Positions 13,035 to 62,456 of a stretch of 62,456 nt of DNA are shown piece after piece. The position numbers were made by a program, and so were the translations under genes. Location: assembly GCA_963590525.1 (NCBI GenBank), contig CAVAPV010000002.1, forward strand, positions 15,181 to 77,636, given 5' to 3'. Numbering within the stretch: the first letter of the stretch is position 1; each line of letters opens with the position of its first letter. The DNA is from Agathobacter rectalis. Lineage in GTDB: Bacteria > Actinomycetota > Coriobacteriia > Coriobacteriales > QAMH01. The notes beneath the pieces were generated by a model. The model searched no databases. It had not been told where the DNA came from and saw only the letters and a program-made list of their open reading frames with translations.

Positions 13035-13955
13035 CTATTTAGACGATGAACTCGCATCGGCGGCGACGCTTTTGGCAGAAAAGTTCTCGGACGGATGCAA
13101 GTTGGTAAAGTAACGCAAGATCTCTTGCGCGGTCTCTTCTATCGCGCGGTTGTCTGTACGGATGACGATGCAGCCCAGCTTTCGCATGAGGGCGCGTGCT
13201 TTCTCGAGGTCGCGGCAGACCTGCTCGTAATCGGCATAGGAGCTGGCAACGCTGTTTGCGTCTCCCAAGCGGCGGCGCCTGATATCCACGAGGACCTCCG
13301 GCACCGTCATAAGCCCAAAGATGCGGCTGGGCTCGACGTCAAAGAGCTCGGCCGGTGGCTCGGTCATCGGGTCGAGAGGGACGTTTGCCACCTTGTACCC
13401 CTGCTGCGACAGATAGATCGAAGTGGGTGTCTTGGAGGTTCTTGAGACTCCAACCAAGACGATATCGGCTTTGGTGAGCTCTTCGGGCATGCAGCCGTCG
13501 TCGTGGGCGATGGTGAACTCGATGGCCTCGATGCGCTTGAAGTAAGTATCGTTGAGCGCGCGCAAGGCACCGGCTTTGGCATGGGGCACGACACCGGTTG
13601 CCTGGATGAGCGCCTGCGTGGGGCCCTGCAGAATATCCACGGCGATGACCTCGTCGTTTTTATCGGCAAAATCGTTTATGGCGTTTGAGATATCCTTGCC
13701 GGCAGAGGTGAAAAAGACGATGAACGGCTCGATGCCGTAGTACGTGCGATGATGCTCAAGATGCGCCTCGAGCTCGGCGGCAACCATGTCGGCATCGGAG
13801 ACATCGGCCAAAAGCTCGATCGTGGGATTGGTAACGGAGTAGTTGGCGGCAGCAGCCCTTGCAGCAGTCACCGCTGTGGTGCCCGCGCCGTCAGAGACGA
13901 TATGAATGGTTGGAAAGCCCTCCACGCGATCGCCTTGGCGTATCCATTTCCTCAT
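13035..13955 (-). CDS. Bifunctional kinase/pyrophosphorylase regulator (DUF299; PPDK/PEP-synthase regulatory protein)
   Basis: 306 aa with P-loop GVSRTSKTPTS and DUF299 layout, immediately upstream of ppdK. Confidence 0.85.
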   Translation of the reverse strand: MRKWIRQGDRVEGFPTIHIVSDGAGTTAVTAARAAAANYSVTNPTIELLADVSDADMVAAELEAHLEHHRTYYGIEPFIVFFTSAGKDISNAINDFADKNDEVIAVDILQGPTQALIQATGVVPHAKAGALRALNDTYFKRIEAIEFTIAHDDGCMPEELTKADIVLVGVSRTSKTPTSIYLSQQGYKVANVPLDPMTEPPAELFDVEPSRIFGLMTVPEVLVDIRRRRLGDANSVASSYADYEQVCRDLEKARALMRKLGCIVIRTDNRAIEETAQEILRYFTNLHPSENFSAKSVAADASSSSK

Positions 13956-13997
13956 GATCTCTACCCCTTCTTAGGTCTGCGCATGCACCAGCAATGC

Positions 13998-14043
13998 AAA
14001 AAACGCAAGGCAGGAGGGGCACGTTACCCCTCCCCTACCTTGC
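13998..14043 (-). terminator. Rho-independent terminator after glyS
   Basis: Minus strand GCAAGGTAGGGGAGGGG-taacgtg-CCCCTCCTGCCTTGC followed by GTTTTTTGC. Confidence 0.8.
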
Positions 14044-14060
14044 AGACAGTACAGAGGTGT

Positions 14061-16148: not shown

Positions 16149-16152
16149 GGCT

Positions 16153-17085
16153 TTAGGCCTCCTGAGCACTAGATGTACGGTTGTCCACAGGTCCGTCTTG
16201 AGAGGGGATGTAAGACCCGCCTCGCTCCACGACCTCGGCCAGATAAGACACGCAGCATGCCTTGGCCACATCGCGCACGCGCAAGATATAGGCGGTGCGC
16301 TCTGTAGCAGAGATGGCACCGCGGGCGTCGAGGATGTTGAACGCATGCGAGCATTTCATGACGTTGTCGTATGCAGGCAGCGGCAAACCGAGGTCGAGCA
16401 AACGATGGCACTCTCTCTCGCATGCCTCGAAGTGCTTGAAGAGCATATCGACGTCAGCATGCTCGAAGTTGTAAGCGGATTGCTCGCGCTCGTTTTCATA
16501 AAAGACGTCGCCGTAAGTGAACACGGTGCCGTCGGGACACTTGGTCCACACGAGGTCGTAGACGCTGTCAACGCCTTGAATGTACATGGCCAGACGCTCG
16601 AGACCGTAGGTGACCTCGGCGGGGATAGGATCGCACTCGATGCCGCCTACCTGCTGGAAGTAAGTGAACTGCGTAACCTCCATGCCGTTGAGCCAGACCT
16701 CCCAGCCAAGACCCCAAGCACCCAGCGTAGGGCTTTCCCAGTCGTCTTCGACAAAGCGGATGTCATGTTTTTTGGGATCGATCCCGATGGCCTCCAAGGA
16801 ACCCAGGTAGAGGTCTTGGATGTTATCTGGGGACGGCTTCATCAAAACCTGAAACTGGTAATAGTGCTGCATGCGGTTTGGGTTTGAGGCATAGCGGCCG
16901 TCTGCAGGACGGCGGCAGGGCTGCACGTAAGCCGTGCGCCAGGTATCAGGGCCGATAGCACGCAGCGTGGTAGCCGTGTGATAAGTGCCAGCTCCTACCT
17001 CGGAGTCATAAGGCTGCAAAACAATGCAGCCCTGATCAGCCCAGTAGCGCTGCAACGTGAGGATGATGTCTTGAAACGTTAGCAT
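16153..17085 (-). CDS. glyQ: Glycine--tRNA ligase alpha subunit
   Basis: 310 aa, [20 protein letters not shown]..., highly conserved GlyQ sequence. Confidence 0.97.
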
Positions 17086-38224: not shown

Positions 38225-39772
38225 TTAGGCAAAGTCGCTTAAGGCAACATATCCGCTCTTGTTGTTATAGGTAGCCTTGGCAAAGTACTCACCGTAAGCG
38301 TTCTTGACAAGTTTTTTGACCTTTACCTTTTTTCCCGCGGCGATCTTTTGAACCTTTGATGAGGCAGCATAGGCGGCTTTTCTCATCGTCGTCTTTGAAG
38401 CAAGTTCATATGTACCTGCCTTAAGGCCACTTGCAAGCTTGCGCGGGATGTCGCATAGCGTGCAGACATCGTTGACAAACTCGTGGCTGCTTGAGCAGGC
38501 AGAGCCATGAGACGACAACAGGCTCATCTTTACATAGCCCGTCTTGCCGTTAACGGTGAACTTGCCCCAATACAGCCCGTCGTTTTTGAGCGCGACTTTG
38601 CTGGGTTTGTAGACGCCGCCTTTGGTCATGGCCACAACGGTTTTGGCGTTGTCTTTTGCCTTGGCCAAAACCTTGGTCTTAGAGGTGGCAACATAGCAGC
38701 GCACCGAGTGCACCACACCGTTATGCCCGCATTCGCAATACCACTTGGCGTCTTTGTAGACCCAAGTATGCGCGACGTTTTTCTTCTTTGTAGCGCCGCT
38801 TAAGACCGCACCGCACGATGCGCAGGTTGTCTTGGTTGTCTTGACCGTATGGGTTGCATCTGTCTGCGCCGAGTAGACGGCCTTTCCGCCCTTTGTCTTT
38901 GCGTGCTTGCATGTGACCCCCTTTTTGACGAGGAGCTCTTGGGCGTCTTTTCGCTCGCTGTTATGCAGTCTGTTGTAGACGGAGATCTGCACAGCAGATG
39001 AGCATGAGTAGAAATGCGACAGGTACTTGCCGGCGATGCCATAGGATTTTGCCGTGGCATCCGAGGCTGATATCTGCGTAGCAGAATCTGCTGGAGCCTT
39101 CTTTTGCGTACGCGACCTCTCGTAGTAGATGAGGTCGATGAGCACGCTTTCTGCCAAGCCGCTCGTATAACCGCCGACCTCCTCTAGCGCAGGTTGCATG
39201 ATGTAGTAGACGCACCCGTAGGGACCATGTTGGATGGCTGTGGAGAAGATGGCGTTTTTGAGAGCGGCGGTGTACTTGCTCAGATCAAGATCCGGTATGG
39301 CGATGGCGATGTACTTGAGAGCCTCTTTGTAGTAATGCTCTTTGCAATAGTTGTACTGCGCGTCAAAGAAGAGGCTCTCGTCTTGCTTGGCACAGTTTTT
39401 CCAAGCTTTGTCAAAGCTTGCGCCTGTCTCTTTTCCATCGCTTTTGTAAGCGCTGGCAAGCGCCTTGCCCCAGGTTGCATACGTTGCAAGCTGGTCATCA
39501 GAAGAAGCCTTTACCTCTTTTGCCTTGAGTTCCTTTGCAAAGGTATAGGCGTTTCCGGGGCTCATCTGATAGGCACCGTACGCGCTGTTGGGATCGATTT
39601 CTGCGGGATCGTTTCCGCTTTCGTATTTGGAGCATAGCTGGCCAAAATCGCGCGCAGCATAGGCGCAATCGGGCTGTGCGATAGCAAACGACCCGGCAAG
39701 GGCAAGCGATGCAAGAAGACCCAAGGCGGCAAAGCGCGTTGCACGTTGCATGAAAGACGTCGTCATGGGCAC
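38225..39772 (-). CDS. Secreted lysozyme/transglycosylase-like cell-wall protein with a Cys-rich insert and two SH3b-like domains
   Basis: Signal peptide (RFAALGLLASLALAGSFAIA). YESGNDP...AYGAYQMSP resembles the E-S / G-x-x-Q lytic transglycosylase signature. C-terminal GKTGYVKMSLL and NKSGYVALSDF are SH3b-type. Start codon ambiguous (39772, 39766 or 39751). Confidence 0.6.
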   Translation of the reverse strand: MPMTTSFMQRATRFAALGLLASLALAGSFAIAQPDCAYAARDFGQLCSKYESGNDPAEIDPNSAYGAYQMSPGNAYTFAKELKAKEVKASSDDQLATYATWGKALASAYKSDGKETGASFDKAWKNCAKQDESLFFDAQYNYCKEHYYKEALKYIAIAIPDLDLSKYTAALKNAIFSTAIQHGPYGCVYYIMQPALEEVGGYTSGLAESVLIDLIYYERSRTQKKAPADSATQISASDATAKSYGIAGKYLSHFYSCSSAVQISVYNRLHNSERKDAQELLVKKGVTCKHAKTKGGKAVYSAQTDATHTVKTTKTTCASCGAVLSGATKKKNVAHTWVYKDAKWYCECGHNGVVHSVRCYVATSKTKVLAKAKDNAKTVVAMTKGGVYKPSKVALKNDGLYWGKFTVNGKTGYVKMSLLSSHGSACSSSHEFVNDVCTLCDIPRKLASGLKAGTYELASKTTMRKAAYAASSKVQKIAAGKKVKVKKLVKNAYGEYFAKATYNNKSGYVALSDFA

Positions 39773-45238: not shown

Positions 45239-46975
45239 TTATGCACCAGCGGTTGCAGTGATGTTTACATCGGCAAGCTTGATCCATCCGACTTTGTAGA
45301 CTTTGCCCCAGGCACCGTCATCGCTTTTCTTGGAGATGCACAAGGCATCGCCTTTCTTGAAGGTAGCCTTTGCTGCGGCAGAGTCAGACGTGTCGGCACG
45401 AGCTGTTACGCTACTGGCGGTGACGACGGCGTTTTGGTACTTGTCGCTCCATTTGCCGTAGAACGTCTTTTTGCCCGTGGCGCCCTTGGCGATGACAAAG
45501 GTGGGCGTGCCCGTGCAAGCCTTGTCTGAATACCAGCCCATAAACGCATAGCCAGACCTCGTGGGCAAAGGCAGCGCTACGCGCTTGGTGGTCTTGTAGC
45601 TTGTAGCGTAGGAGTCAGGCATGCTGCCCTTGGAAAGCTGATAAGCCAGTTTATAGCTTTTTGCCTTCCACTTGGCATACACCGTGATCGTCTGGTTCTT
45701 CTTGCCCGCAACGCTTGTAACCTTCGAGCTTGCGGCAAAGTCCTTGCTTGTATACCAGCCCTTGAAGGTGTAACCGCTCCTTGTGGGATCATTGAGCGCA
45801 AAAGCGCCCTTTGAGACTTTATAGCTCGTGACGTTTTTGGTGTTGTTGGTGCCGCCGTCGAGTTTGTAGTCGATCTTGTACTTGTTGGCTTTCCATTTGG
45901 CAACAAGCGTCACCGCGGGATAATCCGACGCAGAGATAGTCGTGACCTTAGTGCCGTTTGCATACCAACCCATGAAGGTATAGCCGGACTTTGTGGGCTT
46001 GGAAAGCGTGATGGTTTGAGAGTTTGAAGAGAATTTCTTGGGGTTGCTTGCGTTGTTAGTGCCACCGCCCAGATCGTATCTAATCTGGTTTCCGGGGATG
46101 GAGAGCTTCTTTGATAGCGTTTTAAAGCTATCGGCAAAGATGATGTTGGTGTCCACGCGGTTGATGCCGTTGACCGTGCCGTTGGACCAGCCCCTGCTCG
46201 TAAACTGCCATATATCCAGATAATCGCCGTAGTTCTTCATCGCGACGACCTTGCCCGAGTCATCACGGCAATACGTGCAGGCAGAGTTGTAGTTAGCAAC
46301 CCACTTGCTCAAACCGCTGGTGTCAAAGACATCGTTGGTGAGATAGCTCATGTACCAGTAAGCCCCAGCGTAGACACCCACCTTGAAGCCCTCTTTGTAC
46401 AAGGCGTTGCACCAAACGGCAGTCATGCGCGCAAGCATCTTGTTGCCAGGGCGGCAGCTTTCCTCTTCCAAATCGTAGTAGACGGGAAGCTCCACGTCGT
46501 CAGGCTCAAGACCGGCTTCTTTGAGGCAGCGGATGACGTGCTTTGCCTCACCATAAGCCTTGACCTCGTTATCTGCATAGGAATACAGGTAGACGCCTAT
46601 CTTGATGCCGTACTTCTTGGCGTACTTGGCATTGCGCAGCCATTGGTCATCGTCTTGAGACTCATAATCTTGACCATAACCGCAGCGGATGATCGCATAC
46701 TCTATGCCATCGGCTTTGAGCTTTTTCCACTTGACTTTGCCGTTGTGCTCGGAGACATCGACGCAGATGCCCTTGGAGCCGGATATGGACACCTTGAGGT
46801 TGCCACTGTAGAAGCGGTCTTGCCCGTAGGTATAGTGCCAAGTCGTGGGGCATCCGTCAGACGAGCCCCCAACAGCTATGGGCTCTGAGGTTTTTGCCAA
46901 CGCGCTGCCGGCGGCAGCAGTCGTCAAAGCAAGGGCAGCAGCGGTTGCAAGGCAGAGAATGCGTGTGCGTTTCAT
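45239..46975 (-). CDS. Secreted GH25 muramidase with Listeria/Bacteroides-type (Flg_new) repeats and a C-terminal SH3b-like domain
   Basis: Signal peptide. GICVDVSEHNGKVKWKKLKADGIEYAIIRCGYG (GH25). Four repeats of the type Y.L.GG......SGYTF.GWY. C-terminal GAWGKVYKVGWIKL. Confidence 0.85.
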   Translation of the reverse strand: MKRTRILCLATAAALALTTAAAGSALAKTSEPIAVGGSSDGCPTTWHYTYGQDRFYSGNLKVSISGSKGICVDVSEHNGKVKWKKLKADGIEYAIIRCGYGQDYESQDDDQWLRNAKYAKKYGIKIGVYLYSYADNEVKAYGEAKHVIRCLKEAGLEPDDVELPVYYDLEEESCRPGNKMLARMTAVWCNALYKEGFKVGVYAGAYWYMSYLTNDVFDTSGLSKWVANYNSACTYCRDDSGKVVAMKNYGDYLDIWQFTSRGWSNGTVNGINRVDTNIIFADSFKTLSKKLSIPGNQIRYDLGGGTNNASNPKKFSSNSQTITLSKPTKSGYTFMGWYANGTKVTTISASDYPAVTLVAKWKANKYKIDYKLDGGTNNTKNVTSYKVSKGAFALNDPTRSGYTFKGWYTSKDFAASSKVTSVAGKKNQTITVYAKWKAKSYKLAYQLSKGSMPDSYATSYKTTKRVALPLPTRSGYAFMGWYSDKACTGTPTFVIAKGATGKKTFYGKWSDKYQNAVVTASSVTARADTSDSAAAKATFKKGDALCISKKSDDGAWGKVYKVGWIKLADVNITATAGA

Positions 46976-47116
46976 GGGTGTGTTTTCTCCTACGTAAAGG
47001 CGCTTTGCGCAAGCAATGATAGCAAGGCATGAGACGCTCCTGCAAAATCATCAGCTTACGTCCACATATCTTAACCAGCCCTTGTTAAGGAGCCATGAGA
47101 ACGGCGGCGCTCTACG

Positions 47117-47428
47117 TCAGGCGCTATGCAAACCCTGCGTGTCGATGTTTCCGATATGACGGTTGGTATTGAGCGTAAAGGAGACTTTGTCGTCTGCGAC
47201 GATGGCAGGAGTGGTGACGATGACCTCTATGCCATCTGCATTCCAGATAGCCGCCGCCTTATCGCGCAGGCGCTTTGCAAGCATCCCCTTTGGCTCGTAA
47301 GCGAAGACCTCGCTTAGATGCCTGCCTCAATTGACACAGTCGATGATATCTACAGCGATAACATCTGCGCCTTTTGAGGCAAGATGCTCGCGAAGCTTTG
47401 GGTCTATGCAGACACGTGGGGCGTTCAC
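47117..47428 (-). CDS. Thioredoxin-fold selenoprotein candidate (C-V-N-U redox motif; TGA at 47327-47329 read as Sec)
   Basis: GTG at 47428 follows the rluD TAA directly, with GGAG 6 nt upstream. 33 sense codons, TGA, then 69 more in-frame sense codons. SECIS hairpin 10 nt after the TGA. SKGADVIAVDIIDCVNUG and GIEVIVTTPAIVADDKV mimic thioredoxin beta-CxxC and cis-Pro segments at the right spacing. selB is in the same window. Confidence 0.75.
47292..47326 (-). promoter_or_regulatory. Bacterial SECIS element
   Basis: UGA-GGCAGGCAUC-UAAGCGA-GGUCU-UCGCUUA: 7-bp perfect upper stem and GGUCU apical loop (G-U at +22/+23 from the U of UGA). Lower stem GGC/GCC with an internal loop. Confidence 0.75.
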
Positions 47429-48475
47429 TTAGCGCTCCGCCTGGTCAAAGGCTTGGCGGCCGTAATCGGTCATGCCCTCGCTGCGATCGGCGATCAAGCA
47501 CAAAACGTTTTCGAGGTCCCAAGGCAGCTCGTCGGCAAAGCTCATCTGCTCGCCGGTAATAGGATGCGTAAAGCTCAGCTTGCAGCTGTGCAGAAACTGC
47601 CTTGAAAGGCCCAGCTCAGTGCGTTGGGCGTTGTCGCGGTTGCGTGCCTTGACGTTGGCGGCGCGCCCGTAGACCGGGTCTCCAACAACGGGATGCCCGG
47701 TATAGGACATGTGCACGCGGATCTGATGCGTGCGCCCCGTGTAGAGCTTGCACTCCAGCAGGCTGTAGCCATCGTCGATACGGCTTGCCTCAAAGCGTTC
47801 GAGCACGTTGAAGGTAGTGATGGAGCTGCGGCTGCTTGCGTCGATGGTCACGGCCATGCGCGTGCGGTCGCGGTCATGGCGGCCAATCGGTGCATCGACC
47901 ATGCCGTTATCAGCGGCAAAGCTACCATGCACGAGCGTGCAATAGCGCCTATCCACCAAACGCAGCCGGATATCGTCTTGGAGCTTGGCCGCGGCAAGGT
48001 CCGTCTTGGCGGCAAGCATAAGCCCGCTTGTGTCGCGGTCGAGCCTGTGCACGATGCCGGGCCTGTCCTCGCCCTGTACAACGCCCAGGTTGGAGATACC
48101 GCAATGCGCGACAAGCGCGTTAGCCAGCGTGTCGTCGTAATGACCGCGCGCAGGATGGCATACAAGACCCGCCTGCTTGGACAAGACGATGATATGTTCA
48201 TCCTCATAGCGGATATCCAAGGGGATATCGTAGGCAGGCTTGATGGCCGCAGGCTCGCCGCTACGAGGCGGAACCTCTATGTGCAGCACATCGCCTGCCA
48301 AAACCAAGCGCTTCTTGGTTGCAGCTTGGTCGTTTACGAGGATGCGCCCGCTTTCTATCAGGCGCACGACGGCGCTGCGGCTGGCAATGGCCTCTATGCC
48401 CAAACCTGCCACCAAAGCGTCAAGGCGCGTACCCTGCTCCTCATCGGTAACGATATGCGTAAACGACTCTGTCAC
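47429..48475 (-). CDS. rluD: 23S rRNA pseudouridine synthase, RluD subfamily
   Basis: 348 aa. S4 N-domain plus HRLDRDTSGL and TGRTHQIRVH motifs. Confidence 0.92.
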   Translation of the reverse strand: MTESFTHIVTDEEQGTRLDALVAGLGIEAIASRSAVVRLIESGRILVNDQAATKKRLVLAGDVLHIEVPPRSGEPAAIKPAYDIPLDIRYEDEHIIVLSKQAGLVCHPARGHYDDTLANALVAHCGISNLGVVQGEDRPGIVHRLDRDTSGLMLAAKTDLAAAKLQDDIRLRLVDRRYCTLVHGSFAADNGMVDAPIGRHDRDRTRMAVTIDASSRSSITTFNVLERFEASRIDDGYSLLECKLYTGRTHQIRVHMSYTGHPVVGDPVYGRAANVKARNRDNAQRTELGLSRQFLHSCKLSFTHPITGEQMSFADELPWDLENVLCLIADRSEGMTDYGRQAFDQAER

Positions 48476-52380: not shown

Positions 52381-54684
52381 CTACTTGACCTTGACAGCCT
52401 TGACCTTGGACCACGCGGAGTAACAGGTCTTGCCGTCTATAACCTTGTAAGCGCGCACCTTGAAGAAGCGCTTCTCACCGCTTTTGAGGCCTTTGACGGT
52501 GACGGTCTTCTTGCCAGCGCCCTTTGCTTTGACCAGCTTGCCCTTGTTGTTGGAGAGCTTTGCCTTGCTAGAAGCGCAGCGTACTTTGAAGCCATCCACC
52601 TTGACGGCAAACGTGCTCCAGGAAACCTTGACCTTGCCCTTCTTGGTAGAGGCGAGCTTGACGCCAGCTACCTTGATGCTAGCCATGTACTTGGCAAGGA
52701 CCTCGTCGCTTATGCCATCTGTGCCGTCGGGGTAATCGCCACCGGGATACAGATCACTGGGGTCAAAGTCTATAGAGGGAAAGTCGTAGCCCTCTTTGAC
52801 CACAAGGCTATCCTCTTGGCGCACTACCTTGTGGTATGTGTCGTCGCAGGCAAACACCGTGGTATATGCAGAGTCGAGCTTGTCCAGCTGGCCCTTGTTG
52901 GAAAAAACGGTCCAGACAACGTTTTTGCCGGAGCGACCGGATCCCGCAACGTCGAGGCCTATACGGCTGGCAGACGTGATGTAGTTAGAGCTGTCCAGCA
53001 AAAGATACGCGTTGATGATGGCAAGGTCGCTTTTCTTGCCGTCTGCGTAGTTGCCGCTGATCTTTACCGTGCCCCTAAGCGTGCAGCCGGAGTGGTAGGC
53101 AGAGTAATAGCCGCCATGTTCCTTGGTTGCGCTGTTGCCGGTTATGGAGATATCGGTGAGACAAACAGCATCCCTGTCTGCGTAAAAACCAGCGCCTTTG
53201 TTGGCTTTGTTGCCGCTTATAGCGCCCGTCTTGTCATTGGAGTAGACATGGGTATGGTTAGAGAACTCGTCGTAGACGCCGCCGCCTTTTTGTGATGCCG
53301 TGTTGCCTGAGATAGAGCTCGAATCTTCCAGCTGGATGCGGATGTTGCCGTTATACATCGATCCGCCATACGCGATATACACTCCGGCGCCGTTGACGGC
53401 AGTGTTGCCGCAGATCTTAGAGCCGCCCTTCATCACGATGGTCTGCATGTCTTGCATAAGGCACACGCCGCCAGCGTCCTCTGTGGCAGCGTTGTTCTCT
53501 ATAACGCTTGCGCCGTCCATAATCAGGTGCGAGTCTTCTTCCTCCATGCTGATGCCGGCAGCGATCCTGGCGCTGTTGGAGCTTATCTTGGAACCCTTGG
53601 TCATGCTAAAGGTCGCAGTGTCGCCCAGGTACACGCCGCCGGCGTCGCCCCTAAGATCTGCCACCATCCACGAATAGGTGCCGGTGTTGACGTTTTTGGA
53701 GATAGAGGAATTCTCCAGCGCATAGGTAGTTCCCGCACCGGTGTCGTAGATGCCAGCTCCGGTGCCGTTGGCGATGTTGTTGGCGATCGCGCTGTCTGTG
53801 AAGGTAATCGATCCACCCTTGGCGTCATGCGAGATGCCGCCGCCAAACTGCTCGGCCGAGTTGCTGCTCACCGAGCTGCCGTTTTTGGCGACGACGGTGG
53901 CGTTCTTGCCATCCGCGTAGATGCCGCCGCCGGAGAGCTCCGCGTGGTTGTAGACGATTTTGGCGCAGTCGAGCTCCAGGTAGCTGTTGTCCCCGTGCAG
54001 GTAGACGCCGCCGCCCAGGCCATGCACGCCCAAGAGGGTGTCTGCCACGTTGCCGGCCAGGGTGACGTTTTTGAGGTAGGCCTTGGAGTTTTCGCCATAA
54101 AGGGATATGCCTCCCGCAGCGTCGAGGGTGTCGTTGGCACCGCCGGCGATAAGACCGCCAAAGATCAGGTCGCTGCCGTTGGAGCTGCTCTCCCAAAACC
54201 TGCCGTTATGGCTGAGCGTGCCCTTGTGGTAGTAATCCATGCCACCGCCGTCAACGGAAAGCGTCGCGTTCTTGCGCACGCGAAACACCTCGCCGCTACC
54301 CTTGCCGTAGTAGGTGCTGTCTGCAAGGTCGCGGTCGAGCATGTGGCCGTTGAGGCGGAACTCCACGTTGGAGCCCTCCGGGATGTCGATCATGCCGTAG
54401 TTGCGGGTGTTCCAATCGGCATTGAGCGTGAAGACCACCTTGTAGGTGCCCGAGTCCTTGGCGATGCTCAGACCCTTGCTCAAAAGGTCGTCGACGCTGG
54501 TAAAGGTGCCGACGATGGGAAGCGCCATCCCGTCTTTGGATTTGTAGTAGCAAGCGGACCCCACGCTGTCTGCCGCCATGGCAGATGCGGGCACAGCCAA
54601 CGCGGCAGACGCGGCAACGGCAACCGTCGCAAAGGCCAAAACCGCTGTGCGCCTCATGCACAAGGCAAACGAGCCTTTTCTCAT
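52381..54684 (-). CDS. Large secreted parallel beta-helix (polymorphic-membrane-protein-type GGxIY repeats) putative adhesin with a C-terminal Fn3/Ig-like module
   Basis: ATG at 54684 with GGAGGAG upstream. Signal peptide (AVLAFATVAVAASAALAVPASAMA). Many GGG(I/V)Y..., N(S/T)A..GGG repeats. Lys-rich C-terminal beta module. Confidence 0.7.
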   Translation of the reverse strand: MRKGSFALCMRRTAVLAFATVAVAASAALAVPASAMAADSVGSACYYKSKDGMALPIVGTFTSVDDLLSKGLSIAKDSGTYKVVFTLNADWNTRNYGMIDIPEGSNVEFRLNGHMLDRDLADSTYYGKGSGEVFRVRKNATLSVDGGGMDYYHKGTLSHNGRFWESSSNGSDLIFGGLIAGGANDTLDAAGGISLYGENSKAYLKNVTLAGNVADTLLGVHGLGGGVYLHGDNSYLELDCAKIVYNHAELSGGGIYADGKNATVVAKNGSSVSSNSAEQFGGGISHDAKGGSITFTDSAIANNIANGTGAGIYDTGAGTTYALENSSISKNVNTGTYSWMVADLRGDAGGVYLGDTATFSMTKGSKISSNSARIAAGISMEEEDSHLIMDGASVIENNAATEDAGGVCLMQDMQTIVMKGGSKICGNTAVNGAGVYIAYGGSMYNGNIRIQLEDSSSISGNTASQKGGGVYDEFSNHTHVYSNDKTGAISGNKANKGAGFYADRDAVCLTDISITGNSATKEHGGYYSAYHSGCTLRGTVKISGNYADGKKSDLAIINAYLLLDSSNYITSASRIGLDVAGSGRSGKNVVWTVFSNKGQLDKLDSAYTTVFACDDTYHKVVRQEDSLVVKEGYDFPSIDFDPSDLYPGGDYPDGTDGISDEVLAKYMASIKVAGVKLASTKKGKVKVSWSTFAVKVDGFKVRCASSKAKLSNNKGKLVKAKGAGKKTVTVKGLKSGEKRFFKVRAYKVIDGKTCYSAWSKVKAVKVK

Positions 54685-54850
54685 TAAGAACTCCTCCATC
54701 TTCAAGTGGCCGATAAAAGTCACAACTCCATCATATGAGATTGACGTAGGTAGGCACGTTCCAATCGGCGATATGTGCAAGAAGAGAGCAGAGCGCAACA
54801 ATTGGCGCATCGCAACCAGCAAAGACCTACTCGAGAGAGCTGCGATACCC

Positions 54851-56203
54851 TTAGCTCTCCAGCTGGGTTTGAGCCCAAGCGATAAGGTCCTCGCGCATGT
54901 TGGCAAGCTCACCGTCTACCACGAGAGAGAACATCTCGCGCTTGATACGTCCCAAAACAGGTCCAGCCTCAAAACCCAATTGGATAAGATCGCGGCCGTC
55001 GATGGCGAGGTCTCGCTCGGAAAACGCAGTCATGCTCGCCAGCGTGAGCTCGAAGAGCTCCTTGGAGCGCTCAAGTGCCTGCATGTTCTCTACCTGGTTA
55101 AGCCCGCTATGAGTAAGCTTGTCGGCAGCAAAGAGCGCATAGAGGTCACGACAGGCATCAGGCCCCAGGGCAACTATCATGCGCCGCATGGACTTTGCCG
55201 TCTGCGGCAGGTTGCGATCATGGTTTTCTACCAACGTGACCACGCTTTTGCGCATCGCGTTGGAGAGCTTGAGCGTGCGGCAGATGTCATCTGCTATGGG
55301 GGCGCCAGCCTGTGCATGGCCGTAGAAATGCCCGCAGCCGTTATCATCGGTAAAAAAGCACGAGGGCTTGCCCACATCGTGGAGCAAGGCCGCCAAGCGC
55401 AGGTGCGGCTGCGGCGCTATGACTCCGCAGGTACGCACGCTGTGCTCCCAGACATCGTAGATGTGGTAGGGGCTAAGCTGTTTGAAGCCAAACTCAGGCT
55501 CAAGTTGCGGCAGGAAAACCGCTACCACATCGCGGTATTCGAGCAACATCCTAACAGCCGCAGGCCCGCAGATGAGCTTGATAAACTCCGCGCTGGTGCG
55601 CTCAAGCGCCACTTGCTCTAATAGGTGACGGTCCTCATGTATCGCCTGGGCCGTGTTTAGCTCTATCTCAAACCCCAATACGCTTGCAAAGCGTACGCCG
55701 CGGATGATGCGCAGGCCGTCTTCAGCAAAGCGCTTATGTGCATCGCCCACGCAACGCAAACGGCGGCGATGCAGATCCTCCTGGCCACCCGTCACGTCTA
55801 CCAGGCCCCGTGCAGGGGAGTATGCCATGGCGTTTACCGTAAAGTCACGACGCAAAAGGTCGCCTTCAATGCTTTGCAAGAACGTGACGCTGTCTGGATG
55901 GCGACCATCGCTATAGGAGCCGTCGGCACGGTAGGTGGTCACCTCAAAGGGCTCATGGTCGACATGCACGGTAACAGTACCGTGTTCTATGCCGGTGTCA
56001 AAGACCGCAAAGCCAGCAGCATCGCAAACCTCACGCACCTGATGCGGCAGCGCGTTAGTGGTGATATCCCAATCGTTGGGGGTACGGCCCATGAGGGCGT
56101 CGCGCACGCATCCTCCCACAACATATGCCTCAAAGCCCGCCTGTTCCAGCATGTCAAGGACCGCCTGGGCTTTAGGCGGCATATCGATGATTGCATCCAA
56201 CAT
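54851..56203 (-). CDS. cca: CCA-adding tRNA nucleotidyltransferase with HD domain
   Basis: MLDAIIDMPPKAQAVLDMLEQAGFEAYVVGGCVRDALMG, RRDFTVNAMA, HD region LLHDVGKP. ATG at 56203 with GAGGGGGA upstream. Confidence 0.9.
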   Translation of the reverse strand: MLDAIIDMPPKAQAVLDMLEQAGFEAYVVGGCVRDALMGRTPNDWDITTNALPHQVREVCDAAGFAVFDTGIEHGTVTVHVDHEPFEVTTYRADGSYSDGRHPDSVTFLQSIEGDLLRRDFTVNAMAYSPARGLVDVTGGQEDLHRRRLRCVGDAHKRFAEDGLRIIRGVRFASVLGFEIELNTAQAIHEDRHLLEQVALERTSAEFIKLICGPAAVRMLLEYRDVVAVFLPQLEPEFGFKQLSPYHIYDVWEHSVRTCGVIAPQPHLRLAALLHDVGKPSCFFTDDNGCGHFYGHAQAGAPIADDICRTLKLSNAMRKSVVTLVENHDRNLPQTAKSMRRMIVALGPDACRDLYALFAADKLTHSGLNQVENMQALERSKELFELTLASMTAFSERDLAIDGRDLIQLGFEAGPVLGRIKREMFSLVVDGELANMREDLIAWAQTQLES

Positions 56204-56474: not shown

Positions 56475-57469
56475 CTAATGAGAGTAGCAATAGTAGAAAG
56501 CAGGCGAGGTGTAGGTCTTGCCCTTGTACTTGGCATTTGCGACAACGTAGTAGTAATACTCTTTGCCAGCTTTCATGGCTTTACCGGCTACCTTCTTGAT
56601 GGTGCAGCTGGTCTTGGCGGTGGAGGTCACCTTCTTGTAGCCCTTGTTGGACTTGGTAGAGGCATAGACAGTGTAGCTTTTGGCACCCTTGATCTTGTTC
56701 CAGGTTGCCTTGGCATAGGTGGAATACTTCTTACCGCTCATGCTGGGTTGCGGCACCAGCAGCGTAGTGTCAGACCACTCGGAATACTTCTTGGTCTTCT
56801 TGTCCTCTCCTACCTTGATGTAGGTACGCACTTGAGCCGTATAAACCTGGTTAAGTGCCGTCTTGAGCGAGTTTGTCTGAACTGTTTTAGATGAGTTAGG
56901 CACCATATAGCCGGAGTCGTATTTGAGCGTCTTCTTCTTGCCGTCTTTGCCTGTGAGCTTGACCTCGTAGCCAAAGTAGCTACCCGGGTTCTTGAAGCTA
57001 AAGTACAAATTCTTGGAGGCGTTGTACTGGCTCATGATCTTCAAGTTGCTAGTCTTATCGGCAACGGTAACAGGACTCAACAGCGTGATGACGTCATCAC
57101 CAGAGATTCCACCGTTGTTATAGACATAGTGGTAGTAGATCTTAAAACAGTAGTGAGAAGACCCCTCGGGAAGGTCCGTGAAGACAGCGCGCTCGGGCGT
57201 GAGCTCTTGGATGTATTCAACAGGAACTTCAACGCCCTTTTTGTCCGCATAATCTTGAGCGGTCTTATAGGCGACGACTTTGCCCATGGTGATGGTGCAG
57301 TTTTCTCGCAAGTTAGAAAACTCGCAAGTGACGGTGCTGGTGTTGCATCGGTCTGCACGGCTACACCGGTTGCAAAAGCCGTGCCGGCCCCCAGGCAGGT
57401 AAAAGCACCGCAGGCAAAAGCCAAGGCGGCAACACGAGAAAAGCGATGCAAAGAAACGTTGTGCATCAT
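56475..57469 (-). pseudogene. Secreted Lys-rich Fn3/Ig-like surface protein interrupted by a frameshift between signal peptide and mature region
   Basis: Signal peptide MMHNVSLHRFSRVAALAFACGAFTCLGAGTAFA (frame of track ORF 57077-57625, SD AAGGGA) is out of frame with the 356-aa body (track ORF 56475-57545). The junction is near 57320-57345. Confidence 0.6.
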
Positions 57470-57575
57470 GAGAGATCCCTTCATAACGGGCCTGCAGCAT
57501 CGTGAGTGCAGGCGCGTCTTCCCTTGAAGCATATGGTAAAGGCAAAAACAGCTTAAATTAAAAGAAGATTGAGAA

Positions 57576-57652: not shown

Positions 57653-57865
57653 TTAGCGGTAATGCCAGCTTGCCTGGCAGGCAATGTCCGGGCGCTCATC
57701 AAGGCACGAGAGCGCCTCTTCTATCAGATCATCTGCGATGCGCAGCGATATCCCGCAGCTAGCCGAGATATCAGACGGCGTGGGAATGACGTCAAACCTG
57801 ATGCCTGCCAAAAGCTTTTGAGCGGCCATAGCCGCATGCGTCGACTCAAACGCGATGACGACCAC
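57653..57865 (-). CDS. DUF3343-domain protein (selenium-metabolism-associated)
   Basis: 70 aa, VVIAFESTHAAMAAQKLL...IPTPSDISASCGISL matches the DUF3343 pattern. Lies next to yedF. Confidence 0.8.
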   Translation of the reverse strand: MVVIAFESTHAAMAAQKLLAGIRFDVIPTPSDISASCGISLRIADDLIEEALSCLDERPDIACQASWHYR

Positions 57866-57877
57866 AAGCAGCCCCTC

Positions 57878-58483
57878 TTACAGCGTAATGACCTTGGAGG
57901 ACTCGTGCATGCGCTCCAAGATGTCATACATGTTGGAAACCTCACCCACCTTGAGCTCGTCGGTGATGCCAAAGAAGTTGAGGCAGGTGCCGCAGACCAA
58001 GACGTCCGTGCCCTTCTCCATCATCTCTTTGACGCTGTCGATGACCTGGGGCTCGTCGCCGCACAAGAGCTTGACGCCGGCGTTCATAAACAGGAGGTTC
58101 ATAGGGGCGACCTCTGCCTGGTTGAGCGTGTAGATGGCCATCTTCATGAGGTTACGGCCAAGCTCGCGGTCTCCATCGCCCACAAAGTCCTTGCCGATAA
58201 AGACGCTGTAGCCGCATGCGTTACCGCTCACACCGCAGCTAGCAGGCACTTGCTCTGCTGCGGCCTCTGGGCCAAGCTCGCCGCCGATAGTGATCGCAAA
58301 GCCGCCGTCGATGGCCTCGACCGCATGGCCCAGACCCTTCTTCTTTGCCAAGCGGGTGATGTTTTTGACTGCGGTGTCGTTGTCAACCTTGATGCAGATG
58401 TCTGTGTTGCCCTTGTCGATCTCTTTTTTGACCATGACCAAGGGCATGGGGCAAGCCTTGCCAAAACCGTCGAGTTCTACCAT
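57878..58483 (-). CDS. yedF: Selenium metabolism protein YedF (SirA/TusA-like N-domain plus DsrE-like C-domain)
   Basis: 201 aa. GKACPMPLVMVKKEI (CPxP), C-terminal VLVCGTCLNFFG. Confidence 0.85.
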   Translation of the reverse strand: MVELDGFGKACPMPLVMVKKEIDKGNTDICIKVDNDTAVKNITRLAKKKGLGHAVEAIDGGFAITIGGELGPEAAAEQVPASCGVSGNACGYSVFIGKDFVGDGDRELGRNLMKMAIYTLNQAEVAPMNLLFMNAGVKLLCGDEPQVIDSVKEMMEKGTDVLVCGTCLNFFGITDELKVGEVSNMYDILERMHESSKVITL

Positions 58484-58582
58484 GAGATGTCCTTTCTAGA
58501 ACGAGCAGGCGCGCACCTTGGCGCCATGTTGCCTTATGCCAAAGCCCAATGCCGCAAAGCGGAGCTGGGTAGTATCGCTATC

Positions 58583-59725
58583 CTAACGGTTATCCGCTGC
58601 AATATGGGCCAGCGCGTTAAGCGCCGCGTCCACGTCTTGCGGCGTGTTATACCACCCAAAGCTAAAGCGCACCGCACCTTGGTCGCAGGTTCCGATGGCC
58701 TTGTGCATGAGCGGGGCGCAGTGGGCGCCGGCGCGCGTGCAGATGCCGTAGTCGTTGGCAAGCGCGTCTGCCACAAAGGCCGAGTCCAAAGAGCCGATGT
58801 TCATGGCCACGACGCCGGTCCTGGCAGATATGGCGCCGCCATAGTGCTTGGCGCCGGGGATGCACTCGAGCCCATCGCAAAAACGCTGCGCGAGCTTGCG
58901 GTCGTGCTTGGCGATGGTCTCGATGCCCGTCTGCCTCACAAAACGCACACCGGCAGCCAAACCGGCGATGCCATGGCTGTTGAGCGTGCCTGCCTCGAGA
59001 TGATCCGGATACTCTGCGGGATGCTCCATCTCGAAGCTGTGAGAGCCGGAGCCGCCCACCATAAGCGGTCTTATCTCGACGTCGCGGCCAAAAACGAGGC
59101 CTCCTGTGCCCTGAGGCCCCATAAGGCCCTTATGGCCGGTAAAGCAGATGACATCGGCACCCAGCTCGCGCATGTCGACGTTTTCGACACCGGCTGTCTG
59201 GGCAGCATCCACGATAACGCGGGCGCCGTAGGCATGGGCGACCTCTGCCAATGCAGCAACATCGTAGATGTCTCCGGTGAGGTTGGAAGCATGGGTGATG
59301 ACGACGAGCCTCGTGCTCGACTCGAAAGCGCGCTCAAAGGCCCCCAGGTCCAAAGAGCCGTCTGGGGCATGCTTTACCGCGGCTATGCCGTTGCCGTAAA
59401 GCTCGTTGAGATAATAGAGCGGGCGCAACACGGAGTTGTGGCTCGCATAGGTGGTGACGATGTGATCGCCGGGGTCTGCCATGCCAAAGATGGCGGTGTT
59501 CAAAGCTTGGGTGGCGTTTGCGCAAAAGCAAACGCGGCTCGCATCAGGTGCGCCAAAAAGCTCTGCGACTTGCTCGCGCGCCTCGAAGACGGCCATGGCG
59601 GCCGATAAGGAGGCGCTGTGCACACCGCGGCCTACCCCGCCAAAGCTCTGCATCGCCGTCGTCACGGCTTCGATGACCTCGGGTGGCTTGACCATGGTCG
59701 TTGCAGCGTTATCGAGATAGATCAT
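58583..59725 (-). CDS. Class-V PLP-dependent cysteine desulfurase / selenocysteine-lyase-family protein
   Basis: MIYLDNAATTMVKPPEV... from the ATG at 59725. ITHASNLTGD, DAAQTAG, FTGHKGLMGPQGTGGL (PLP Lys), C-terminal RAGAHCAP. Confidence 0.88.
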   Translation of the reverse strand: MIYLDNAATTMVKPPEVIEAVTTAMQSFGGVGRGVHSASLSAAMAVFEAREQVAELFGAPDASRVCFCANATQALNTAIFGMADPGDHIVTTYASHNSVLRPLYYLNELYGNGIAAVKHAPDGSLDLGAFERAFESSTRLVVITHASNLTGDIYDVAALAEVAHAYGARVIVDAAQTAGVENVDMRELGADVICFTGHKGLMGPQGTGGLVFGRDVEIRPLMVGGSGSHSFEMEHPAEYPDHLEAGTLNSHGIAGLAAGVRFVRQTGIETIAKHDRKLAQRFCDGLECIPGAKHYGGAISARTGVVAMNIGSLDSAFVADALANDYGICTRAGAHCAPLMHKAIGTCDQGAVRFSFGWYNTPQDVDAALNALAHIAADNR

Positions 59726-59959
59726 CAAGCACCTTTCCGCTATGAAGCGCCCTTCCCCTTTGGACATAGCTCAAAGCAAATCCGCCTGCAAAAAAGCATG
59801 GCAGACGTTTCCCCTTTGGATGACAAGGTAACGCGATATCACGCGCATACGGCTCCAGCAGCGCATGGCATAACGCAGCCGCGAGCAATACAGACGCAAG
59901 CGGCGCGCCAACCGCAAGGCCAGCGCGCCGCCAATAATCAATGCTTATCGAGAAGGAGC

Positions 59960-61426
59960 TTAGTCCCTGGGAGCAGCAGCAGGATAGTCCAAATGCGCGA
60001 ACTTATCCGGGTCCCCTGTCTCGCCGATCTCGGTCTTGCCCTCGTCGGGCACGACGTAATCGTCGTAATCGGCGGGGTCGGTTGCCTCGAGATCGTCTGC
60101 GTTGACCTCGGCGATGGTGTCGTCGCGGAACACGTCGCGATCAAGCATGCCCACCATGTTGGCGATGGCCGTGGTGCACACGGCGTCGCCGGTGATGTTG
60201 ATGGCGGTACGGCCCATGTCAAGGATGCGGTCGATGCCCATGATCATGGCCACAGCCTCGACAGGCAGGCCAACGGAGCTAAAGACCATGGTGAGCATGA
60301 TGGTACCAACGCCAGGAACGCCTGCCGTTCCGATAGAGGCCGCAGTGGCCGTGACGACGACGGTGACGAGCTGGGACATGGTGAGGTCGATGCCAAAGGC
60401 CTGGGCGGCAAAGACGACTGCCACGCCCTGCATGATAGCCGTGCCGTTCATGTTGATGGTAGCGCCCAAGGGGATGGTAAACGAAGAGATCCTGGGGTCG
60501 ACGCCAACGCGCTTGTTAAGCGTCTCCATGTTGAGCGGGATGGTTGCGTTAGAGGAGCTGGTAGAAAACGCGAAGACCATGACGGGCCAGAACTTCTTGA
60601 GGAAGTGCAGAGGGTTGAGGCGCGTGAACACGAAGAGGATGAGCATGAAGACCACGAGCAGCATGAAAAGCAAGCCAATGTAGGTGGTCACGATAAAGTT
60701 GAGCATGGGCAGGATGCCGGAGATGCCCAGGTTGGCAAAGGTACGCGTGATCAGGCAGAAGATGCCCAAGGGTGCAACCTTGAGGATGAGGCTGATCATA
60801 GCCATCATGATGGAGTTGAACTGGGTGAAGAAGCGGTTGACGGTGGCCACCTTCTTGCCCAGCATGCCCAGCAAGAAGCCCAAGATGAGCGCAAAGAAGA
60901 TGATCTGCAGCATGGTGCCGTCGGCCAGCGCGCCAAAGATGTTGGTGGGGATGATGTTGAGCAGCGTGGTCTTGAAGTCTGTATCCTCGGCCGTTGTCGT
61001 AACCTCGCTTTGGGAGATGGAGCCTAGATCCAGACCCAGACCGGGGTTGGTGATGTTGGCCAGGGCGATGGCGATGCAGATCGACACAGCCGTGGTGATC
61101 AAGTACATGAGGATGGTGCCGCCGCCCACTTTGCCCAGCATCTTAGGATCGGACATAGACGCTGCACCGCACACGATGGAGCAAAGAACCAGCGGGGCAA
61201 CGATCATCTGCATGAGGCGGATAAATCCCTGGCCGATCACATAGCAGATGCCATCGATGAAGATGTCGCTAAAGGCGGACTCCTCGGGCAAAATCGAGTT
61301 GAGCACCAGGCCAAAAACAATGCCGGCAGCCAACGAGATGAGAATCCACGTCGTCATGCTCAGCTTCTTTTTCTTAGGCGCGGACTGCTTGGCTTTCAAG
61401 TCCTTGCCGGTATCGGTGTCTGACAT
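59960..61426 (-). CDS. Dicarboxylate/amino-acid:cation symporter (DAACS/SLC1 family) with an approx 70-aa acidic C-terminal tail
   Basis: ATG at 61426 with GGAG 8 nt upstream. Multiple TMs. SSSNATIPL, GATINMNGTA and VDRILDMGRTAINITGD motifs. Confidence 0.85.
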   Translation of the reverse strand: MSDTDTGKDLKAKQSAPKKKKLSMTTWILISLAAGIVFGLVLNSILPEESAFSDIFIDGICYVIGQGFIRLMQMIVAPLVLCSIVCGAASMSDPKMLGKVGGGTILMYLITTAVSICIAIALANITNPGLGLDLGSISQSEVTTTAEDTDFKTTLLNIIPTNIFGALADGTMLQIIFFALILGFLLGMLGKKVATVNRFFTQFNSIMMAMISLILKVAPLGIFCLITRTFANLGISGILPMLNFIVTTYIGLLFMLLVVFMLILFVFTRLNPLHFLKKFWPVMVFAFSTSSSNATIPLNMETLNKRVGVDPRISSFTIPLGATINMNGTAIMQGVAVVFAAQAFGIDLTMSQLVTVVVTATAASIGTAGVPGVGTIMLTMVFSSVGLPVEAVAMIMGIDRILDMGRTAINITGDAVCTTAIANMVGMLDRDVFRDDTIAEVNADDLEATDPADYDDYVVPDEGKTEIGETGDPDKFAHLDYPAAAPRD

Positions 61427-61615
61427 GAGGTTTACTCCCAAACTAGATGTCGCAAATGCAAAACGCGTGTGAGTATATAGCCTTGGCTAGCTGCTCGCAG
61501 CCGTTATTTACCTATTTAGCAGCCGTGCGGGGCAATTTAACACGGACGATACCTTATAGTCGCCTGTAGCAAACAGGCACCGCAGGCGTGCAAACCCTCT
61601 TTAGGAGCAAACCCC

Positions 61616-62456
61616 ATGGCAAAGACCGACCTCATCTTGGGCACCGCAGGCCACATCGACCACGGCAAGTCGTCCCTGGTCAAGGCCCTCACCGGAACAG
61701 ACCCAGACCGCTTGGCAGAAGAAAAGGAGCGCGGCATCACCATCGCCTTGGGCTTTGCCCAGCTCACCTTGCCCAGCGGGCGCAAAGTGGGCGTGGTAGA
61801 CGTCCCCGGACACGAGCGCTTTGTGAGGCAGATGGTATCCGGTGCCACGGGAATCGACGTCGCCTTGCTCGTCATCGCAGCAGACGACGGCGTCATGCCC
61901 CAAACGGTTGAGCACATCGCCGTGCTGGAGCTTTTGGGCGTGCAAAACGTCGTCGTAGCCTTGACCAAGGTCGATATGGTCGATGAGGACTGGGCGCAGT
62001 TTGTAGCCGAGGAAGTCTCTACCGCGCTTGAGAAGACCTCGTTTGCAGGCGCGCCTGTCGTATGCTGCTCAAGTATCACCGGCCAAGGGCTTGACGAGCT
62101 CAAGCAAGTCTTAGACGACACCTTGTCGCATTCCGAGCGTACCAAGCCCCAAGGCAAGGTGCGTTACCCCATAGACCGCGTGTTCACCGTCAAGGGCTTT
62201 GGCACCGTGGTCACCGGCACCTTGTGGTCGGGCACGGTGCACGTGGGAGACGAGCTTGAGATCTTGCCCCAGCAAAAACGCAGCAAGGTCAGGTCTATCC
62301 AGGTGCACGGCAAAGACACCTCATCTGCATGCGCGGGAAACCGCGTGGCTATCTGCCTTGCAGACCTCTCCTGCGACGAAGTCAGACCCGGGGATTTTGC
62401 TGCGGCCCCCGGATGCGTCGAGGCAACAGATCGCTTTGACGCCGAGCTCTTCTTGA
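61616..62456 (+). CDS. selB: Selenocysteine-specific elongation factor SelB (5' part; runs off the window)
   Basis: Not in the ORF track because it has no stop in the window. ATG at 61616, MAKTDLILGTAGHIDHGKSSLVKALTG, DVPGHERFV, LTKVD, domain II IDRVFTVKGFGTVVTGT. Confidence 0.9.
   Translation, partial: MAKTDLILGTAGHIDHGKSSLVKALTGTDPDRLAEEKERGITIALGFAQLTLPSGRKVGVVDVPGHERFVRQMVSGATGIDVALLVIAADDGVMPQTVEHIAVLELLGVQNVVVALTKVDMVDEDWAQFVAEEVSTALEKTSFAGAPVVCCSSITGQGLDELKQVLDDTLSHSERTKPQGKVRYPIDRVFTVKGFGTVVTGTLWSGTVHVGDELEILPQQKRSKVRSIQVHGKDTSSACAGNRVAICLADLSCDEVRPGDFAAAPGCVEATDRFDAELFL

Follow-up and report, generated by a model that had tools for sequence, protein, structure and literature searches.

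The window analysed here is the whole 62,456-nucleotide stretch of contig CAVAPV010000002.1, and the region 47428-47117 of its minus strand, directly behind rluD, is very probably a single selenoprotein gene of a new family, whose in-frame UGA would be decoded by SelB with the help of a hairpin, the selenocysteine insertion sequence (SECIS). The frame opens with a GTG at 47428, runs through 33 sense codons to a TGA at 47329-47327 and then through 69 further sense codons to a TGA stop at 47119-47117, so that the predicted product of this coding sequence (47117..47428, minus strand) has 103 aa, with selenocysteine (Sec) at residue 34. The GTG abuts the TAA (47431-47429) of the pseudouridine synthase gene rluD (47429..48475, minus strand; PF00849, 1.3e-29) and is preceded, at a distance of 6 nt, by a GGAG (47435..47438, minus strand) which lies within the 3' end of rluD and, judged by its sequence only, resembles a Shine-Dalgarno (SD) site. 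The GTG and its junction with rluD, the GGAG at 6 nt, both TGA positions, the codon counts and the translation had been given by an original prediction made from the letters of the window, and re-reading them returned identical values. The same prediction reported a 63-aa antisense open reading frame (ORF) as the only one listed in the region; this ORF is indeed present, but a list with a lower length cut-off also contains two minus-strand pieces, of 33 aa and 55 aa. The gene has been overlooked by gene callers because of its in-frame UGA. The family to which it belongs is small, not described before, apparently composed of Sec-containing members throughout and, as far as seen, confined to gut Coriobacteriales.

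The proposal of an unannotated selenoprotein gene is borne out by in-frame conservation on both sides of the UGA. Relatives were collected at 23 loci (L001-L023), which represent 13 distinct sequences and two paralogues, a and b; alignment A4 contains seven a-type sequences. Scans of GTDB and of metagenomes with exact short patterns, one of the metagenome patterns having an artificial Cys codon, contributed 3 and 2 of these loci, respectively. The same architecture, composed of frame, UGA and hairpin, is found throughout L001-L023. In the DNA alignment, the TGA is kept in frame, and a stretch of about 70 nt, starting at the TGA and running through the hairpin, is nearly invariant. Between the window and L001, substitutions at the first, second and third codon positions number 12/10/21 before the UGA and 12/11/21 after it, a third-position bias being thus present on both sides. 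Thirteen residues are invariant in both paralogues (L12, V26, D27, U34, G35, E40, V41, F42, A43, P46, G48, G66 and G99). In the a-type sequences of A4, Cys31, which forms a CxxU motif with the Sec, and His37 are present in 7/7, and His91 in 6/7, being replaced by Pro in the L016 type.

Database searches retrieve the family exclusively as pieces that meet at the UGA. When the window protein is used as a query with U replaced by C, only three clusters are found, each of 65-aa proteins spanning the C-terminal 63% of the query. The contigs of these clusters carry ileS-lspA-rluD, a 33-aa ORF, a stop, a 65-aa ORF and a GH25/Flg_new gene, which is the gene order of the window. An exhaustive search of 1.84e9 representatives with a C-terminal profile adds the distant members P0004, P0013 and P0017, the remainder being WD40/repeat-protein noise. 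P0004 and P0013 are short downstream fragments, whereas P0017 is a 97-aa product beginning after the UGA and divergent at its C-terminus; all three contigs also carry an in-frame TGA and a hairpin upstream of the called product. Similarly, a profile of the full-length family gives 12 matches, every one a downstream fragment. All C-terminal matches begin after the UGA and are 55-69 aa long, with the single 97-aa exception, and an N-terminal profile yields 19 clusters of 31-54 aa, 19/19 of which end at DCV[SN] or AQAS[TS], that is, exactly at the UGA (47327..47329, minus strand), whose position is shared by all 13 distinct relatives. The search with a U-to-C query thus led, as the original prediction had anticipated, to TGA-containing relatives, but not to the Cys-containing ones that it had envisaged as well.

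The only public name found for any piece of the family is 'MAG: hypothetical protein' (MAG, metagenome-assembled genome), given to a 58-aa fragment. Where relatives are labelled, they are named as MAGs of Coriobacteriales or Coriobacteriaceae; the carriers were recovered largely from gut metagenomes, a Hadza stool sample among them. One contig binned as Akkermansia muciniphila (L012, CAVCDT010000094.1) carries a member 75% identical to the window protein; it is probably mis-binned, because its gene content resembles that of the Coriobacteriales loci. Beyond residue ~85, the P0017 product (L018:269-727) departs from the family and ends in an unrelated hydrophobic C-terminus, which may result from a frameshift, an assembly chimera or a membrane-anchor fusion.

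The putative SECIS element (47292..47322, minus strand) consists of an upper stem-loop (47316-47298) and a lower stem GGC/GCC formed by 47322-47320 with 47294-47292. The upper hairpin, UAAGCGA-GGUCU-UCGCUUA, has a perfect 7-bp stem and begins 10 nt after the UGA; its loop GGUCU is located at 47309-47305, 17 nt separating it from the UGA, and exposes a G and a U at nt 22 and 23 counted from the UGA. The hairpin, its distance from the UGA, the G and U of its loop and the lower stem, which had been given in the original prediction, were found again, and RNAfold recovers the hairpin. A core of 13 nt, GCGAGGUCUUCGC, is unchanged in 13/13 distinct sequences. When a 12-pair structure is imposed on the alignment, 82.7% of the cells are paired in register, as compared to 22-44% after a shift of the 3' partners by 1-3 nt. 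Two pairs are compensatory, an A-U becoming G-C directly below the core and a C-G becoming G-C in the lower stem, and one further stem pair switches between A-U and G-U among the 13 sequences. The lower stem differs between relatives: within the a group, the amino-acid alternatives E/V and L/T (H-L...Y-E-P versus H-T...Y-V-P) suggest that one lower-stem pair is swapped for another.

When the whole window was scanned with Rfam, nothing matched, and whether Rfam includes a bacterial SECIS model was not established. A reading of the hairpin as the terminator of rluD was ruled out, as no U-tract follows it, and a promoter and terminator scan of 46850-47600 found no such site between rluD and the selenoprotein gene, nor just 3' of the gene. 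The hairpin falls within the range of the bSECISearch model, which we take to require a conserved G (and U) in an apical loop ~16-37 nt from the UGA. The best basis for comparison is the SECIS of Escherichia coli fdhF, whose upper stem-loop covers nt 15-31 and in which U17, G23 and U24 are conserved (PMC8659212). Both are intracoding hairpins immediately 3' of the UGA with the loop GGUC(U), the upper stem-loop of the window covers nt 14-32, and its loop G22/U23 faces G23/U24 in fdhF, the fdhF-type geometry proposed originally being therefore matched to within 1 nt (PMC8659212). Unlike the fdhF element, the window stem is a perfect 7 bp, without a counterpart of the bulged U17. Taken at the level of sequence and geometry, the assignment of the hairpin as an fdhF-like SECIS is strongly supported, and its recognition by SelB is predicted.

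A second tandem paralogue, b, follows directly after the first copy in L015 (791-1162), L019 (8174-~8545), L020 (2754 onward) and L021 (360-730), with its own UGA and its own SECIS (GGCGA-GGUCU-UCGCC), whereas the window has a single copy of the gene. The sequence of paralogue b around the Sec is ...VDVAQAST-U-GGAIGEVFAF..., and its identity to the window protein is about 25-30%, depending on the aligner. A tblastn alignment between the two (7e-10) nevertheless extends over 100 residues and crosses the UGA. As its motif is A-S-T-U-G-G, without a Cys at position -3, CxxU is not family-wide: the C-x-x-U arrangement pointed out in the original prediction holds for the window and the a-type sequences, but not for paralogue b. 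In L019 (GCA_051876075.1, a Coriobacteriales MAG), a RiPP-like cluster is found immediately downstream of both selenoprotein genes (8640-16177), with an 86-aa Nif11-like leader peptide, two radical SAM (rSAM)/SPASM genes, the first of them for a maturase, and a pair of ABC transporters, of which one has a C39 peptidase domain.

Scans of Pfam and NCBIfam with the window protein and 8 family members return nothing at E <= 10, and a profile search of PDB sequences returns noise only. The fold was approached by an AF2 model, built from an alignment of the window protein (X at Sec) with 12 N-terminal and 10 C-terminal database fragments. The model has a pLDDT of 91.4 and a pTM of 0.83, the five models ranging over 88-91. 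Its topology is beta1 5-8, alpha1 10-18, beta2 23-32, a turn N33-U34-G35-R36, beta3 37-44, alpha2 49-56, beta4 60-64, beta5 67-71, beta6 76-86 and beta7 95-102. When the model is compared with the PDB by Foldseek, ranks 1-9 and 11 are taken by IscA (1x0g, 1s98, 1r94), YneR (9a4q_B), SufA (2d2a), AQ_1857 (1nwb), DsrR (2k4z) and 2qgo, with E from 5e-3 to 0.7, probabilities of 0.33-0.99 and TM of 0.32-0.47; the unrelated rows below have probabilities of at most 0.23. Against BFVD, an 'iron-sulfur cluster assembly protein' ranks first (E = 4e-4, TMq 0.59), followed by a protein annotated with 'Core domain', presumably the HesB/FeS-biogenesis core domain. The model thus points, with moderate similarity, to a HesB/IscA-like fold rather than to a thioredoxin fold. 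Judged by the order of secondary-structure elements, Sec34 would correspond to Cys35 of IscA, which belongs to the G-C-S-G turn joining beta2 to beta3. As a separate observation, MAFFT kept overlaying the N-terminal fragments (…ALREHLAAKG..IAVDIID) on the C-terminal half (…LAKRLRDKAAA..DGIEVIVT) in alignments A7 and A8, which could reflect a weak internal repeat in the selenoprotein, with beta-alpha-beta occurring twice.

Among known selenoproteins, the closest in kind is the HesB-like selenoprotein (TIGR01911), which has the motif UxGP and is listed as experimentally verified (Table 1 of PMC13188914). Like the predicted window protein, it is a small single-domain bacterial protein of ~100 aa, of the HesB/IscA-type fold predicted here, with a single Sec in the N-terminal third, apparently in the same hairpin turn as the conserved HesB Cys, and its role is likewise not assigned. 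It differs in three respects: (i) the window family has C-V-[NS]-U-G-R-H or A-S-T-U-G-G (U-G-G-A) instead of U-x-G-P, (ii) the window family has an extra helix (49-56) between beta3 and beta4, and (iii) Cys forms exist for the HesB-like selenoproteins (PMC1794560), whereas none was found here and the window family is limited to Coriobacteriales. Neither TIGR01911 nor PF01521 matches any of 8 members at E <= 10, assuming that both models are in the NCBIfam and Pfam copies scanned.

The A-type carriers IscA, SufA and ErpA (1s98, 1r94, 1x0g, 2d2a), together with the Cys-less YneR (9a4q_B) and DsrR (2k4z), are the best structural matches in the PDB (E 5e-3 to 0.1, TM 0.36-0.46). They share with the model the element order beta1-alpha1-beta2-turn-beta3 followed by beta-strands. 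In contrast to them, the window family has Sec and not Cys in the turn, is not located within an isc or suf operon and bears no significant sequence or profile similarity to them. The CC/Se motif family (NF041239; CxxU; Moorella) is also a small CxxU selenoprotein without an assigned role, and its model matches none of the 8 family members in the NCBIfam scan. A 2026 inventory recognizes 119 prokaryotic selenoprotein families, each with a domain identifier, mostly a Pfam or NCBIfam model (PMC13188914); none of the Pfam and NCBIfam models, including those tied to this inventory, matches the window family.

If this reading is correct, the gene would most likely be transcribed together with ileS-lspA-rluD and its translation would start at the GTG abutting the rluD stop. 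At UGA34, the hairpin beginning 10 nt downstream, with its loop GGUCU, would recruit SelB with Sec-tRNA(Sec); Sec would be inserted there and reading would continue to the TGA at 47119-47117. The predicted product, of 103 residues, has a HesB/IscA-like alpha/beta fold in the model, with C31-V-N-U34 at the tip of the beta2-beta3 hairpin.

Two genomic contexts bear on the role of this product. In the first, the gene is found directly after ileS-lspA-rluD, as in the window, L001-L011, L015, L019 and L020, where called genes or ORFs were inspected; L012 and L013 have at the rluD position an ORF of 348-370 aa. The junction with rluD is a TAA abutting the GTG in the window, a TGATG overlap in L001, a TAG-ATG in L012 and a 63-nt gap in L015. 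As the junction varies among relatives, the position after rluD is conserved but the tight coupling is not, and the translational coupling to the ileS-lspA-rluD operon that had been proposed is retained as a widely conserved position with a lineage-specific junction.

In the second context, seen in L016/L017 and L022/L023 (L016:509-3192; L022:58-4315), an operon-like array ends in the selenoprotein gene. It contains, in this order, a PGA_cap-like gene, a gene for a dicluster/CCG protein, a gene for a flavoprotein resembling PadH and CoA-disulfide reductase (CoADR), and the selenoprotein gene, whose start overlaps the end of the flavoprotein gene (ATGA; L016 and L022). The dicluster protein has two 4Fe-4S motifs and two CCG domains, and the flavoprotein is without the CoADR active-site Cys. 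The best NCBIfam match of the dicluster protein is NF045663, 'diclust_near_Sec' (2.8e-23, 82 bits versus a cutoff of 530). The name of this model implies a selenoprotein neighbour, and the selenoprotein of L016 and L022 adjoins its best-match protein; on the other hand, the match is far below the cutoff and covers the dicluster/CCG part only, the flavoprotein being a separate gene in L016 and L022. The array may be a split version of the reductase family that NCBI named for its selenoprotein neighbour. In this one lineage, electrons could pass from NADH to FAD, to the Fe-S clusters, to the CCG site and finally to a selenylsulfide on the selenoprotein, by analogy with heterodisulfide reductases (Hdr). 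The link to an Hdr-like reductase is suggested through guilt by association in a single lineage. The protein is tentatively proposed to be a small redox-active or Se/metal-carrying protein, in which the Sec, together with Cys31 in the main subfamily, would cycle via a selenylsulfide.

Alternatively, the selenoprotein, still of HesB/IscA fold, could serve as a carrier of metal, Fe-S(e) or selenium that, for example, passes Se or a cluster on to a partner, instead of working by selenylsulfide redox, a possibility that we regard as doubtful, though only slightly less likely than the redox role. Its fold would be that of the A-type Fe-S carriers and its Sec would stand at the inferred place of their first ligand Cys. 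His37 and His91 are invariant in 6/7 a-type A4 sequences (His91 being Pro in the L016 type), the genome has YedF, DUF3343 (Se/S carrier) and SclA-like selenium-handling genes, and paralogue b has no Cys at -3, so that a two-residue redox couple is not universal. However, the C-terminal C-G-C ligand pair of IscA, SufA and ErpA is absent from the family, the Se-handling genes are ~10 kb away and not adjacent, and the sole informative alternative neighbourhood of the gene is a reductase pair.

Several observations weigh against the interpretation as a Sec-decoded, HesB/IscA-like redox protein, at the level of the RNA, of the family, of the fold and of the role. Concerning the RNA, the 66-nt segment alone has a z of -1.4, which is not unusual, and a loose filter (a hairpin with a G..GU loop 14-24 nt after a TGA) picks 3 sites out of 1700 TGA triplets in the window, so that the hairpin by itself is weak evidence; the finding rises above chance because UGA, frame and hairpin are kept in 13 distinct sequences. 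The hairpin also varies little. Since both double changes split the a from the b paralogues, each of them amounts to about one evolutionary event, and the covariation thus comes essentially from one split. As the nucleotides of the hairpin encode the invariant E-V-F-A, constraints on RNA and on protein are inseparable there. The scan of the 62-kb window for tRNA genes found none and hence no tRNA-Sec, and selA and selD were not seen in the window.

Concerning the family, no Cys-containing full-length form was found among 5.8e9 proteins, among 1.84e9 representatives or with Cys-codon patterns in metagenome contigs. GrdA is not known to have Cys homologues, so that the existence of such a homologue is not a strictly defining criterion. 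Almost all selenoproteins do have Cys homologues, and this is the usual bioinformatic criterion (PMC12013277). Concerning the fold, the structural match to HesB/IscA is moderate (PDB TM 0.42-0.48, rmsd about 6 Å), and the alignment of fragments given to AF2 carries no co-variation between the N- and C-terminal halves; from the single sequence, AF2 reaches a pLDDT of only 41.8. Comparison by hhalign with IscA alone and with an alignment of IscA, SufA and ErpA was not significant: it pairs only D-G-I-E-V-I-V with K-G-V-K-V-V-V on the IscA side, at negligible probability, and homology to HesB is therefore not demonstrated. No member has the Cys-Gly-Cys found at the C-terminus of the A-type carriers. 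Concerning the role, the Hdr-like neighbourhood is found in one lineage only, as two near-identical contig pairs, and the lack of a Cys at -3 in paralogue b weakens a selenylsulfide mechanism as a general one.

As to the existence of a single gene, the region could instead hold two separate small genes, for a peptide of 33 aa and a protein of 55-65 aa, or a single gene that a nonsense mutation has inactivated, with the UGA acting as a plain stop and the hairpin being incidental. This is how the gene callers of every public assembly annotate the region, and the hairpin alone is, as seen above, statistically unexceptional. We nevertheless consider it improbable. The UGA is kept in 13/13 distinct sequences and in both paralogues, and in a pseudogene the third-position bias would not persist on both of its sides. 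Neither a start codon nor an SD is conserved for the downstream piece: its called starts differ among relatives (TTG or ATG at residue 38, GTG at 45, ATG at 49), and the conserved G-R-H-x-S-E-V-F-A-Y runs from the UGA to the called starts, extending upstream of every one of them. Finally, both pieces together form a single compact domain in the AF2 model, in which beta2 pairs with beta3 across the UGA. A global reassignment of UGA is rejected as well, because UGA ends the selenoprotein gene itself, and rluD in relatives.

The original prediction placed the product, as a genuine selenoprotein, among the thioredoxin-fold CxxU oxidoreductases. The main subfamily does have C-x-x-U after a hydrophobic strand, and most characterised selenoproteins contain a thioredoxin-like fold (PMC13188914). 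This assignment is now very improbable. The AF2 model has the topology beta-alpha-beta-[U turn]-beta-alpha-beta-beta-beta-beta. In it, the Sec is not followed by a helix; it is found in the turn between strands 23-32 and 37-44 and not at the N-terminus of a helix after beta1. As the Sec would be at the tip of a beta-hairpin, whereas CxxC/U caps the helix after beta1 in the thioredoxin fold, the thioredoxin reading is unsupported. The segment GIEVIVTTPAIV, in which a cis-Pro loop had been proposed, is a strand-turn-strand in the model. No thioredoxin-fold protein is present among the 50 Foldseek matches listed for each of the PDB and BFVD, no Pfam model of the thioredoxin clan matches at E <= 10, and paralogue b is without the Cys of CxxU.

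That the antisense ORF (47126-47317, plus strand, 63 aa) would be the real gene and the sense features its by-products is hardly credible: although all relatives have a codon-aligned antisense frame that is open over 66-124 codons, coding sequence in G+C-rich genomes commonly gives rise to such open antisense frames, the frame is open over only 66-68 of ~103 codons in the window and several relatives, substitutions gather at sense position 3, which is antisense position 1, translation is far better conserved in sense than in antisense (141 vs 87, 130 vs 59, 99 vs 45 and 50 vs 26 bits), and the sense product folds confidently into a known fold according to AF2 and Foldseek.

The selenium-related genes that had been predicted from the letters are present elsewhere in the window: selB, whose product is the Sec-specific elongation factor required for reading the UGA, yedF, DUF3343 and a selenocysteine-lyase-like gene were all confirmed. 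The region 57653-62456 forms a selenium-utilisation cluster, with DUF3343/Se_S_carrier (57653-57865; PF11823, 8.9e-18), YedF (57878-58483; TIGR03527, 173 bits), an SclA-like cysteine desulfurase / selenocysteine lyase (58583-59767; TIGR01977, 413.8 bits, NF040779 (SclA) being below its cutoff) and an SDF-family symporter (59960-61441), all on the minus strand, and then selB on the plus strand (61616..62456; TIGR00475, 308.9 bits versus a cutoff of 242). Only the N-terminal part of selB is contained, as the gene runs past the window end; the score was obtained with 275 N-terminal residues translated from 61631 to the window end, and the start was placed at 61616 from upstream residues. Two cell-wall hydrolase-type genes are found near the selenoprotein locus, one encoding the GH25/Flg_new protein (45239-46975) and the other a 515-aa protein (38225-39772, minus strand) with a T6SS VgrG3-like C-terminal (lysozyme-like) domain and SH3_3. 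Two minus-strand ORFs, of 843 aa (52381-54912) and 356 aa (56475-57545), have no Pfam or NCBIfam match, and K, Y, T and S abound in the C-terminal half of the shorter product (356 aa); both ORFs may be spurious or mis-started in G+C-rich DNA.

These results point to a selenoprotein family without a match to any Pfam or NCBIfam model, of which public records contain solely truncated pieces, most of them unnamed. By the account of its authors, deep-Sep may filter out selenoproteins that have no Cys homologues (PMC12013277). That the family escaped earlier detection is thus explainable, because predictors such as deep-Sep discard candidates without Cys homologues, and it provides a concrete example of selenoproteins missed by homology-based pipelines. 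Paired clusters of fragments, one ending at the UGA and the other starting just after it, could be used to discover such genes. If the predicted fold holds, the family would be a second, sequence-unrelated instance of Sec in a HesB/IscA-type fold, and would offer a new handle on the role of that Sec/Cys position in proteins without the other cluster ligands.

The family also bears on the use of selenium in the gut microbiome. A speculative idea is that the HesB/IscA-fold family is restricted to this lineage, obligately contains Sec, has no Cys form anywhere and fulfils a dedicated job in gut Coriobacteriales. If this were true, the candidate jobs would be those of (i) a selenylsulfide substrate of, or carrier for, a new Hdr-like reductase that depends on NADH and consists of the flavoprotein and the dicluster/CCG protein, or (ii) a carrier of selenium or of an Fe-Se cluster, and the site behind ileS-lspA-rluD would mean that the protein is a constitutively expressed, housekeeping selenoprotein.

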